A stretch of DNA of 64,000 nt from Escherichia coli (GTDB lineage Bacteria > Pseudomonadota > Gammaproteobacteria > Enterobacterales > Enterobacteriaceae), in assembly GCF_003790525.1 (NCBI RefSeq), contig NZ_CP033635.1. One strand, 5' to 3'. The notes beneath the pieces are model-generated. The model had not been told where the DNA came from and did no database searches. It saw only the letters and a list, made by a program, of their open reading frames with translations. Within the stretch, counting starts at the first letter, position 1. Every line of letters starts with the position of its first letter. The position numbers and the translations under genes were made by a program. Shown here piece by piece: positions 11,837 to 32,871 of the stretch.

Positions 11837-11966
11837 CTCGCTCTCCTGCGAATCTTCAATCCGCCTAGCTTAACTGCTTCTTTCTACAGAACAAAATCAT
11901 GCTCATTTTTTAGACTTAAACGAGTGCAAAAAAATGTAAATTGGTAAAATTTCACACCTGCATAAG

Positions 11967-11980
11967 TTGATGTAAAACAA
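11967..11980 (+). promoter_or_regulatory. upstream FNR-type site (TTGAT-N4-AACAA) of the grcA promoter
   Basis: TTGATgtaaAACAA, centred 53 bp upstream of the perfect site; matches the reported two-site FNR arrangement for yfiD/grcA. Confidence 0.6.
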
Positions 11981-12019
11981 TAAAATCCATTTGTGACCAC
12001 ATTCGATATGTGGTTTCTA

Positions 12020-12033
12020 TTGATTTAAATCAA
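12020..12033 (+). promoter_or_regulatory. consensus FNR site (TTGAT-N4-ATCAA) of the grcA promoter
   Basis: Perfect TTGATttaaATCAA palindrome ~108 bp upstream of the grcA start codon. Confidence 0.8.
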
Positions 12034-12140
12034 AGAATCAAGGGTGTTTGAGGAGTATATATACACTCAAGCAACAATGGTTTTACCAATTGGCCGCGAC
12101 AGGCTGAACAAATCAAATAATTTTGCCGGGGAGGCATCAC

Positions 12141-26683: not shown

Positions 26684-27415
26684 ATGGCTGAATTACTGTT
26701 AGGCGTCAACATTGACCATATTGCAACGCTGCGTAACGCACGCGGTACTGCTTACCCAGATCCGGTGCAGGCGGCGTTTATTGCTGAGCAGGCGGGAGCG
26801 GACGGCATTACCGTGCATTTACGTGAAGATCGCCGCCACATTACCGACCGCGATGTGCGCATCCTGCGTCAGACGCTGGATACCCGCATGAATCTGGAGA
26901 TGGCGGTGACCGAAGAGATGCTGGCGATCGCCGTTGAGACGAAGCCACATTTTTGCTGTCTGGTACCGGAAAAGCGTCAGGAAGTAACAACCGAAGGCGG
27001 CCTGGACGTCGCTGGACAGCGTGAAAAAATGCGCGATGCCTGCAAACGTCTGGCGGAGGCCGGGATCCAGGTTTCTCTGTTTATCGACGCCGATGAAGAG
27101 CAGATCAAAGCTGCGGCAGAGGTTGGCGCACCGTTTATCGAGATCCACACAGGTTGCTATGCTGATGCCAAAACTGACGCCGAACAGGCGCAAGAGCTGG
27201 CGCGTATCGCCAAAGCCGCGACCTTTGCCGCTAGTCTCGGTCTGAAAGTTAACGCTGGTCACGGTCTGACCTATCACAACGTGAAAGCCATTGCCGCCAT
27301 CCCTGAGATGCATGAACTGAATATCGGTCATGCCATTATTGGTCGTGCAGTGATGACTGGACTGAAAGATGCGGTGGCAGAAATGAAGCGTTTGATGCTG
27401 GAAGCGCGTGGCTAA
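26684..27415 (+). CDS. pdxJ: pyridoxine 5'-phosphate synthase
   Basis: 243 aa from [21 protein letters not shown]...; ORF-track ORF begins 5 codons upstream. Confidence 0.95.
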
Positions 27416-27795
27416 TGGCAATATTAGGTTTAGGTACGGATATTGTGGAGATCGCTCGCATTGAATCGGTGATCGCCCGATCCGGTGAGCGCCTGGCACG
27501 CCGCGTATTAAGCGATAACGAATGGGCAATCTGGAAAACGCACCACCAGCCGGTGCGTTTTCTGGCGAAGCGTTTTGCTGTGAAAGAAGCGGCGGCAAAA
27601 GCGTTTGGCACCGGGATCCGCAATGGTCTGGCGTTTAATCAATTTGAAGTATTCAATGATGAGCTCGGCAAACCACGGCTACGGCTATGGGGTGAGGCAT
27701 TAAAACTGGCGGAAAAGCTCGGCGTTGTAAATATGCATGTAACGCTGGCAGATGAACGCCACTATGCTTGTGCCACGGTAATTATTGAAAGTTAA
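27415..27795 (+). CDS. acpS: holo-[acyl-carrier-protein] synthase
   Basis: 126-aa [20 protein letters not shown]...; 4'-phosphopantetheinyl transferase fold; start overlaps the pdxJ stop. Confidence 0.96.
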
Positions 27796-27811
27796 AAAAA
27801 TACCGTTCTCT

Positions 27812-27900
27812 TTATAAAGTAAAACCCCCGAACTGGTAAGGAACGGGGGTTTTACTTTACAACTTTAATTTTGTGCAGCACACGATTCCAACGGAAATGA
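27812..27900 (-). ncRNA. ohsC: OhsC antitoxin sRNA (approximate boundaries)
   Basis: Minus-strand segment between the bidirectional terminator and a candidate -10 (RC of 27899-27904 = CATAAT). Contains the antisense of GTGCAGCACACGATTCCAA (27873-27891), an 18/19 match to the shoB 5' UTR copy at 28122-28140. Ends are not determined. Confidence 0.5.
27818..27856. terminator. bidirectional rho-independent terminator (acpS on + strand, ohsC on - strand)
   Basis: AGTAAAACCCCCG-aactggtaaggaa-CGGGGGTTTTACT palindrome; both strands give a G/C stem followed by UUUUACUUUA. Confidence 0.8.
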
Positions 27901-28215
27901 TTATGGATCAATTTAGTTGACCTGTACAAGCAACTTGCAATCTCTGACATAAAAAACGCGAGCCTTTACGAAGAAATCGACATTGATGAAAAGATTAACG
28001 TGACCGCTTTTTGATAAGTACATTAAAATCGGTTTCGTTATTGGCAATTTTGCTGTGCTTTACACCATGCCACTGAATTCCCCCATTGAAACGAGTGGTG
28101 TCGTCAAAGCTCTGGTGTGGAGTGCAGCACTCGATTCCAATAACTCGCACGTTCAGTTTTGGGGTGATGTAAGGGCTAATCTGAACGGCTGCATTCCTTG
28201 TTTAAGGAAAAACGA

Positions 28216-28296
28216 ATGACTGATTGCCGATACCTGATTAAACGGGTTATCAAAATCATCATTGCTGTTTTACAGCTGCTCCTTTTGTTCTTATAA
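28216..28296 (+). CDS. shoB: ShoB small toxic membrane peptide (type I toxin), 26 aa
   Basis: ATG at 28216 preceded by AAGGA; encodes MTDCRYLIKRVIKIIIAVLQLLLLFL, a hydrophobic 26-mer; missed by the ORF track because of size. Confidence 0.85.
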   Translation: MTDCRYLIKRVIKIIIAVLQLLLLFL

Positions 28297-28315
28297 CACA
28301 AGGAAACGTACTTAA

Positions 28316-28352
28316 GGTGCGTCCGGTGAACCAATCGGACGCGCCTTTAATA
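28316..28352 (+). terminator. hairpin downstream of shoB (weak terminator)
   Basis: GGTGCGTCCG-gtgaaccaat-CGGACGCGCC followed by only TTT; weak U-tract. Confidence 0.45.
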
Positions 28353-28489
28353 ACTATAAATAAGTGTCTGGGCAGATACTATATAAATTTACTTAGTGAA
28401 TGATTATGCTAATTTCATCATTTAAATAAATATAATAGCGTTAAGGTTTCTCTATAAAATAATTAACACTCTACTTCCAGAGCAGAATA

Positions 28490-28786
<297 letters not shown>

Positions 28787-28805
28787 TTATACGCGCATTC
28801 TTTAC

Positions 28806-29654
28806 TCAGACCAGTTTTTTCACCAGCGCTTCACTATGACGAATACGTTCTGGTGCCAGTTCCAGATCCTGCTGAATCAGCGCAATGAACAGCAAATCCG
28901 TTAACATTCCCTGCGCGTGACAAGCAGAGATTGAAGCACTGTTTGTCGCTTGTTCTTCGGCAATGGTATACAGGCAATGAGAAGCACGCTGTTGCAGGGC
29001 ATTGGGAGTAAAGCCGGTAATCGCCAGCACTTTTCCGCCCACTCGCAGCATCTCATCTGCCGCCAGGTTTAACTCGCGTCGTACACCGGTGTAGGAAATG
29101 GCTAATAACAGATCGTCAGGGGACGACGCCTGTACTGTAGCGAGTAGCGCATGCATATCGCGCACTGCGGCAGCATTGAAGCCAATCTTCATCAGCTTCC
29201 AGGCAAAGTTTTGCGCCACCAGACCCGAAGCGCCAATACCGGTCAGAATTATCCGCCGCGCAGAGCGCAACATTGTTACGCATTCATGCAGTTTCTCTTC
29301 ACTATTAACGTTTAGCGTTGCGTACATGGCGGCAGTATTTTCTTTAATCAGTTTTTCGCCGACCAGCCGTAACGGATCATCACCGCGGATTTGGTTATGA
29401 ATGGGCACGGAGGGAGATTCCGGCTGGCTTGCCAGCGCTTCACTCAACGCCAACTTAAGTGCCGGAAAACCTTTATAGCCGAGTTTTTGCGCGAACTTCA
29501 CGACGCTGGACTGACTGACTCCGGCTTCGTTGGCCAGTTGCTGAGAGCTTAAATGGCGCGCCGTATCAGGTTGTAGCAGCAGATAATCCGCCAGTTTTTT
29601 ATCACTCTGGGCAAGCCCCTGGTAACGCTGACGGATACGAAGTAAGCCGTTCAT
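28806..29654 (-). CDS. yfhH: RpiR/SIS-family transcriptional regulator (uncharacterised)
   Basis: 282 aa from MNGLLRIRQRYQGLAQSDKKLADYLL...; N-terminal RpiR-type HTH (SSQQLANEAGVSQSSVVKFAQKLGYKGF) and C-terminal SIS domain; ORF-track start is 24 codons upstream. Confidence 0.85.
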   Translation of the reverse strand: MNGLLRIRQRYQGLAQSDKKLADYLLLQPDTARHLSSQQLANEAGVSQSSVVKFAQKLGYKGFPALKLALSEALASQPESPSVPIHNQIRGDDPLRLVGEKLIKENTAAMYATLNVNSEEKLHECVTMLRSARRIILTGIGASGLVAQNFAWKLMKIGFNAAAVRDMHALLATVQASSPDDLLLAISYTGVRRELNLAADEMLRVGGKVLAITGFTPNALQQRASHCLYTIAEEQATNSASISACHAQGMLTDLLFIALIQQDLELAPERIRHSEALVKKLV

Positions 29655-32793: not shown

Positions 32794-32871
32794 CAGCGCA
32801 TCAGATTCTTTATAATGACGCCCGTTTCCCCCCCCCTTGGGTACACCGAAAGCTTAGAAGACGAGAGACTT

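Follow-up and report, generated by a model that had tools for sequence, protein, structure and literature searches.

Rho-dependent termination of untranslated 3' trailers and of antisense read-through was reportedly described by Peters et al. in 2012, and the 'switching' of intergenic regions between strains is said to have been described by Oren et al. in 2014. Two further systems bear on the locus studied here: the type I toxin-antitoxin pair shoB/ohsC (Fozo et al. 2008, 2010; PMC11264685), whose toxin ShoB is restricted to E. coli and close relatives (Fozo et al. 2010), and the acquired AT-rich DNA bound by H-NS (Higashi et al. 2016, PMC4720273). The subject of this analysis is an AT-rich tract (28350-28489) in a 64,000-nucleotide stretch of the E. 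coli chromosome (contig NZ_CP033635.1; hereafter the window, whose positions are used as coordinates). As a non-coding spacer the tract is ordinary; it lies in a thoroughly studied region of the E. coli chromosome, for which genome-wide data on transcript ends and H-NS status have already been published. We consider it probable that it is the non-coding, yfhL-side end of the acquired shoB/ohsC segment, consisting of the yfhL trailer and the tail of the shoB terminator and likely to act as an H-NS seed.

The DNA around the tract matches that of E. coli SC516 at 100% identity and that of K-12 at about 93.5%; the first difference from SC516 to the right of the tract is a poly-C run (32825-32836, mltF-purL spacer) that is one base longer in the window. 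The ORF list and the RefSeq annotation (that of the identical strain SC516 in the case of acpS) place the coding sequences as follows: acpS, holo-ACP synthase and left ancestral neighbour of the tract (27415-27795, + strand); shoB, the 26-aa type I toxin (28216-28296, + strand); yfhL, a 2x[4Fe-4S] ferredoxin and the right ancestral neighbour (28750-28490, - strand); and yfhH (29654-28806, - strand). The antitoxin sRNA ohsC (27816-27892, - strand) is matched by Rfam RF02495 (101.7 bits, E=7e-17); its terminator hairpin (27812-27862, inverted repeat I1) also stands behind acpS, and the published ohsC 3' end at 2700594(+) corresponds to about 27820 (Adams et al. 2021, PMC7815308). The promoter scan placed the shoB promoter at 28000-28029 (+ strand; -35 GTGACC, -10 TAAAAT), and PMC11264685 (Table 2) gives identical hexamers. 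Behind shoB, folds and inverted repeat I2 define the terminator hairpin (28317-28346), which reaches -25.3 kcal/mol in + strand RNA and -19.2 kcal/mol in - strand RNA, and which is followed by the tail TTTAATAAC (28347-28355, + strand).

An earlier note, made from the letters alone, had described the sequence between shoB and the end of yfhL as strongly AT-rich, and both this claim and the gene context given for it were confirmed. The tract has 25.0% G+C (A+T 75%), compared with 52.2% for the window (A+T 47.8%) and 42.7% for the pooled annotated intergenic sequence. Only 18 of the 63,861 sliding 140-bp intervals are as low or lower in G+C, and all of them overlap the tract site; the minimum of the whole 64 kb is found at 28358-28497 (24.3%), and the second independent low-G+C site lies in the ung-grcA spacer (11903-12042, 27.9%). 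The windowed calculation thus puts the A+T content above that of the other intergenic regions. The three A/T runs quoted in the note are present as placed: TATATAAATTTACTTAG (28380-28396), TTTAAATAAATATAATAG (28421-28438) and AATATTAAATTTTA (28487-28500), the last of which extends into the stop codon (28490-28492) and the final codons of yfhL, a gene of 261 bp and 45% G+C that abuts the tract. The first six bases of the tract (28350-28355) are the tail of the shoB terminator; the remainder (28356-28489) has no assigned gene or RNA end.

The origin of the spacer was analysed at 80 loci for relatives of YfhL, from a collection with a single genome for each species; acpS and shoB were located in them and the junctions read. 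Across most of the remaining enterobacterial genera in this sample, the stop codons of the convergent acpS and yfhL overlap and there is zero spacer (e.g. ..AAACTTTAACTTTCGATAAT..), an arrangement seen in about 30 genera (including Citrobacter, Enterobacter, Kluyvera, Kosakonia, Pluralibacter and Pseudescherichia); a few genera have short, unrelated acpS-yfhL spacers of 20-150 bp. Among the 80 loci, shoB together with a spacer of several hundred bp was found only in the two Escherichia loci (E. coli L007 and E. albertii L008). Because the other genera sampled lack this spacer or shoB, the 694 bp between the acpS and yfhL stop codons (27796-28489) constitute an Escherichia-specific insertion, with 37.9% G+C as against 45-52% for the flanking genes, and the tract is therefore the yfhL-side end of a lineage-specific insertion. 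The ancestor of Escherichia would have acquired this low-G+C segment of about 694 bp, carrying shoB/ohsC, between convergent acpS and yfhL genes whose stop codons overlapped. The motif TTAAA occurs at each border (27792-27796 and 28490-28494); in other genera the overlapping stops form one region only. The two copies could be a 5-bp target-site duplication, or just as well the product of selection to keep both stop codons intact. Searches of plasmid and phage collections for related DNA gave zero phage matches and, on the plasmid side, four E. coli records of several megabases, clearly chromosomes deposited as plasmids. A repeat search of the insertion found neither terminal inverted repeats nor a degenerate shoB/ohsC copy, and blastn of the tract sequence against the window and the rest of the insertion found none either. 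The acpS-yfhL spacer is thus a datable, Escherichia-only insertion, of possible interest for work on type I toxin-antitoxin systems and on intergenic evolution.

Mobile elements were also observed at the locus. In E. coli SCPM-O-B-9504 (L006), an IS5-family element, ISKpn26, lies at a CTAA site within the tract (28409) and replaces 27999-28408. Gone with this interval are the shoB promoter, 5' UTR, coding sequence and terminator, as well as the left half of the tract, and the locus is reduced to ohsC, an 'antitoxin-only' state. E. coli AF20 (L092) carries an integrative element with a tyrosine integrase at the yfhL 5' end (about 28740), and yfhL is a reported prophage integration site, Stx2b prophages included (PMC12029490, PMC3603311).

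The sequence of the tract varies strongly at nearly constant length and composition. A 224-bp query (28297-28520, the tract with its flanks) was matched in 5,425 of 5,426 complete E. coli genomes (at least 80% covered in 5,397), and the tract measures 140-141 bp in the 10 alleles aligned. The mean pairwise difference, calculated from nine E. coli-labelled sequences of which one is a probable cryptic lineage, was 0.21 in the tract, 0.02 in shoB, 0.03 in yfhL and 0.04 in yfhH. SCPM-O-B-8794 (L007), recorded as E. coli, is probably such a cryptic Escherichia lineage: its yfhL/yfhH DNA differs by 9-10% from other E. coli, about the distance of E. albertii. The alleles are bimodal: some 530 genomes are at least 95% identical to the allele of strain Ec-2939 and 4,881 only 60-80% identical to it (over the 224 bp, conserved flanks included). 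Within the tract, the Ec-2939-type allele differs by 31-36% from all others, compared with 13-18% between the typical E. coli tract and that of E. albertii or the cryptic Escherichia lineage, and next to it its carriers have genes of the ordinary E. coli type. The stem of the shoB terminator (28317-28346) exists in two forms, GGTGCGTCCGG...CGGACGCGCC and GGCGCGTCAGG...CCAGGCGCGCC, the second of which occurs in E. albertii as well as in the divergent E. coli allele; by eye, it can still be drawn as a terminator-like hairpin. These comparisons, which covered two Escherichia lineages besides typical E. coli, suggest that the divergent allele is either an old polymorphism or a short stretch imported from another lineage of Escherichia.

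A separate variation was observed at the pairing sites of the module. The ohsC 5' end (27873-27891) and its target in the shoB 5' UTR (28122-28140) form a 19-nt direct repeat, GTGCAGCAC[A/T]CGATTCCAA. At each of the two sites, the block of K-12 (GCAGCATGCACCCTCAA) and of Ec-2939 is another one, of the K-12 type, and the block through which sRNA and target pair has therefore changed in concert between lineages. The pairing region was also found to vary widely in PMC11264685, a study in which pairing itself was untested.

Whatever the allele, the G+C content of the tract stays at 21-28%, and strong-to-weak and weak-to-strong differences are roughly balanced. Composition appears to be held while the sequence drifts, which fits either a composition-dependent role (H-NS binding, unstructured RNA) or a local AT-biased equilibrium. 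Three blocks do not vary even at species-level divergence: 28344-28363 (CCTTTAATAA/TATAAATAA behind the terminator, with CCTTTAATAA kept in 10 alleles), 28425-28435 (AATAAATATAA in the middle of an otherwise variable core) and 28487-28504 (ATATTAAATTTTATCCGC at the yfhL end). Together with the hairpin predicted at the yfhL stop (see below), they hint at some sequence-specific function. These data bear directly on the view that the tract is functionless filler, whose A+T content comes from relaxed selection and AT-biased mutation and at which H-NS and Rho are incidental, a view that we find rather doubtful. It would account for the very high diversity of the tract, for the lack of any element identified by the Rfam, sORF and repeat searches and for the tolerance, in one strain, of an IS5-family insertion at the CTAA of 28409 with loss of 27999-28408. 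It is opposed by a G+C content far below the pooled intergenic value, held at 21-28% in all alleles and in other species with balanced substitution directions, by the constant length, by the presence of the 224-bp tract with flanks in all but one of the complete genomes and by the three invariant blocks. In the same data one might also read two ancient haplotypes, kept for composition and not for sequence, because the tract acts as RNA or chromatin on the toxin module; we give this conjecture very little credence. If true, the dimorphism would reflect selection and not chance import, and the tract could act either as a yfhL 3' UTR or tract-initiated antisense RNA overlapping the shoB 3' end, or as an H-NS nucleation site setting shoB/ohsC expression.

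The search for genes and RNAs within the tract found no gene-like content. The Rfam 15 covariance models (27000-29500, E<=1) returned ohsC as the sole credible match, leaving the tract empty; no conserved sORF of at least 8 codons with a ribosome-binding site was found across the 10 alleles; the supplement of the ribosome-profiling sORF survey of Stringer et al. 2021 has no sORF or other entry at the genes or coordinates of the tract; and no repeat or paralogue of the tract was found in the insertion or the window (repeat search, blastn). A gene of its own, be it a small or antisense RNA started from a -10-like hexamer (such as one complementary to the shoB 3' end, as a second toxin regulator) or a very small protein, therefore seems to us highly improbable. 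There is a TATAAT at 28431-28436, present in most alleles and overlapping the invariant block 28425-28435, and there are consensus promoter matches on both strands (28458-28429, - strand; 28463-28491, + strand); however, such matches are no commoner than in shuffled sequence (4 found, 3.7 expected), and terminator-like consensus matches are likewise at chance level. A 9-codon ORF, MIMLISSFK (alignment positions 185-214), is in frame in 7 of the 10 alleles, but it has no Shine-Dalgarno sequence and is gone in EDL933, SCAID and E. albertii. Antisense transcription over shoB does exist, limited by Rho; yet the Term-seq list holds no orphan 3' end inside the tract, and the variable core differs by a third between alleles and has no visible partner site. 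The SMRT-Cappable-seq and Cappable-seq supplements list neither the genes nor the coordinates of the locus and speak neither for nor against a promoter inside the tract, which may exist.

The earlier note had also proposed that the tract is intrinsically curved DNA, which the calculations do not support. In the wedge model (approximate, with angles after Bolshoy et al. 1991), the tract has a mean curvature of 14.0 degrees, the window 14.3, and the tract maximum of 22.4 degrees falls at the 85th percentile; independently of these angles, the AA/TT power at 10-11 bp is 0.26 compared with a shuffle mean of 0.45. The high A+T content and the several short A/T runs might suggest an architectural element, but with curvature that is average for the window and A-tracts that are not phased we find that idea scarcely credible. 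A predicted curved site lies near 28725, on the yfhL 5' side.

The proposal of a 3' UTR or terminator zone for both convergent transcripts, made in the same note, largely held. In K-12, a strong Term-seq 3' end, 2700059(-), was reported in all three growth conditions (Adams et al. 2021, PMC7815308, Supplementary file 1); flanking sequence places it at CACCTTTAATAA^C, about 28355, and it is the 3' end of a shoB mRNA of about 320 nt that starts from the promoter at 28000-28029. Except for the last six nucleotides of this mRNA, the tract lies outside both transcripts of the module, and the pairing blocks at 27873-27891 and 28122-28140 and the promoters at 27900-27928 and 28000-28029 are all outside it. 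For yfhL, no sense-strand 3' end was reported in or near the tract in the three Term-seq conditions, where low yfhL expression could hide one (PMC7815308).

We considered whether yfhL might nevertheless have an intrinsic terminator at its stop codon, and judge this distinctly unlikely. An A/U-rich hairpin spanning the stop codon is predicted in the yfhL-sense RNA (28500-28454, - strand; MFE folds) which, with the U-rich sequence, would end the mRNA about 40 nt past the stop. All alleles tested are predicted to form it, at -15.1 kcal/mol (z -4.3) for the window, -12.9 for K-12, -10.0 for the divergent allele and -10.9 for E. albertii, and 28468-28500 is largely conserved in E. coli, the cryptic Escherichia lineage and E. 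albertii, allele (c) being the most different. However, z-scores are weak in two of the four alleles, only two of the 20 pairs are G-C, and the consensus fold (-13.4 kcal/mol) contains zero compensatory pairs in the covariation test, several pairs being broken in the divergent allele. The U-richness that speaks for a terminator (UGUUAAUUAUUUUAU) is that of the 3' arm of the hairpin itself, and AGAGAAACC comes after the full stem; the 5' arm is constrained in any case, as it codes for the YfhL C-terminus. The terminator scan made no call at 28500-28454, no K-12 + strand 3' end occurs there in the three Term-seq conditions, and farther along there is read-through that responds to Rho.

According to published bicyclomycin data, transcription that runs out of yfhL passes through the tract and is kept in check by Rho. 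The Rho region 2700120(+), classed as 'antisense shoB', has a score of 3.75 (p=2.3e-8), with 90/29 reads upstream/downstream in untreated cells and 120/145 with bicyclomycin (PMC7815308, Supplementary file 2). Mapped by means of the shoB 3'-end sequence, it falls at about 28294 (taken here as a termination region at 28290-28300, - strand), some 195 nt past the yfhL stop (28490); this position is coarse and the termination point imprecise, as the scoring uses 800-nt windows and the downstream one includes ohsC on the same strand. The approximately 195 nt contain no conserved ORF and exceed the 50-80 nt of untranslated RNA taken as the criterion for Rho. The yfhL-sense RNA of the tract has 9-15% G and 8-15% C, with a C/G ratio of at most 1.5 (peak at 28440-28363), and being C-poor as well as G-poor it is not a textbook C-rich rut, which weighs somewhat against our interpretation. 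The shoB hairpin also folds in this antisense RNA (-19.2 kcal/mol, without a U-tail), and it probably protects a trimmed yfhL-sense 3' end. We infer that the tract forms the yfhL 3' UTR, and that since the insertion yfhL has relied on Rho instead of a distinct terminator.

A published study of Nac (PMC5217608) assigned one ChIP-seq peak at yfhL (U00096.2 2697790; about 28645, approximate mapping) to shoB and yfhL alike. On induction of Nac, shoB rose 82-fold and yfhL fell 50-fold, so that the convergent pair is regulated in opposite directions.

A nucleoid-protein binding region, the remaining proposal for the tract, finds indirect support, at the level of the gene rather than of the tract. 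In the ChAP-seq data of Higashi et al. (PMC4720273, S2 Table), yfhL is scored as H-NS-bound, by overlap with a bound region in at least one of SE11, SE15 and K-12, and this call, made per gene, survives the removal of genes whose binding is confined to their extreme 3' end; recO, rnc, yfhK and further genes that the table lists near it are unbound. The high-affinity H-NS nucleation motif tCGATAAATT has only two-mismatch matches here (28380, 28451 and 28521), a class barely enriched in the window (73 found, 57 expected). From the composition and the yfhL-level call, the tract, or the spacer as a whole, is most likely the H-NS nucleation site, and the tract is probably H-NS-coated, although binding could centre elsewhere, for instance at the predicted curved site near 28725.

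Composition, insertion, absence of a gene and hypervariable sequence at constant composition are direct observations, and the preferred reading, the yfhL-side end of an acquired segment, would join them as follows. The tract would have no gene of its own; its first six bases would serve as the tail of the shoB intrinsic terminator, and the remainder would be transcribed only as an untranslated yfhL trailer. RNA polymerase coming from yfhL would cross it, and Rho would halt the enzyme at or shortly past the hairpin of the shoB terminator, which, read antisense, would guard the trimmed 3' end, and by its composition the tract would seed the H-NS binding reported at yfhL. The three invariant blocks and the predicted hairpin at the yfhL stop sit less easily with this scheme. 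Beyond the claims of the earlier note, of which the 3' zone stood and the curvature did not, the tract is thus placed within an Escherichia-specific insertion and combines hypervariable sequence with conserved composition. It matters little for new biology, but it is a clean example of conserved composition with free sequence and of a sharp two-allele split within a species.

Compared with the known systems, the locus resembles the Rho termination of 3' trailers and antisense read-through (PMC7815308) in its bicyclomycin-sensitive read-through on the yfhL-sense strand, antisense to shoB; classic Rho sites are C-rich and G-poor, whereas the yfhL-sense RNA of the tract is poor in both. With the acquired AT-rich DNA bound by H-NS (PMC4720273) it shares low G+C, lineage restriction, an H-NS-bound neighbour gene and raised diversity; however, the segment is only about 0.7 kb long and lies downstream of both flanking genes, whereas the faster evolution reported by Higashi et al. 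is found mainly upstream of genes. The two sharply distinct haplotypes of one segment beside nearly identical flanking genes recall intergenic 'switching', but switching is a swap for unrelated DNA, whereas the forms of the tract are homologous, of equal length and of similar composition, as in deep divergence or a short import. As to the shoB/ohsC type I locus (Fozo et al. 2008, 2010; PMC11264685), the query of its conservation survey (PMC11264685) ended at the shoB ORF and the tract lies beyond it; the tract nevertheless shares the segment with the toxin-antitoxin pair, begins with the shoB terminator and accompanies every intact copy of the locus.
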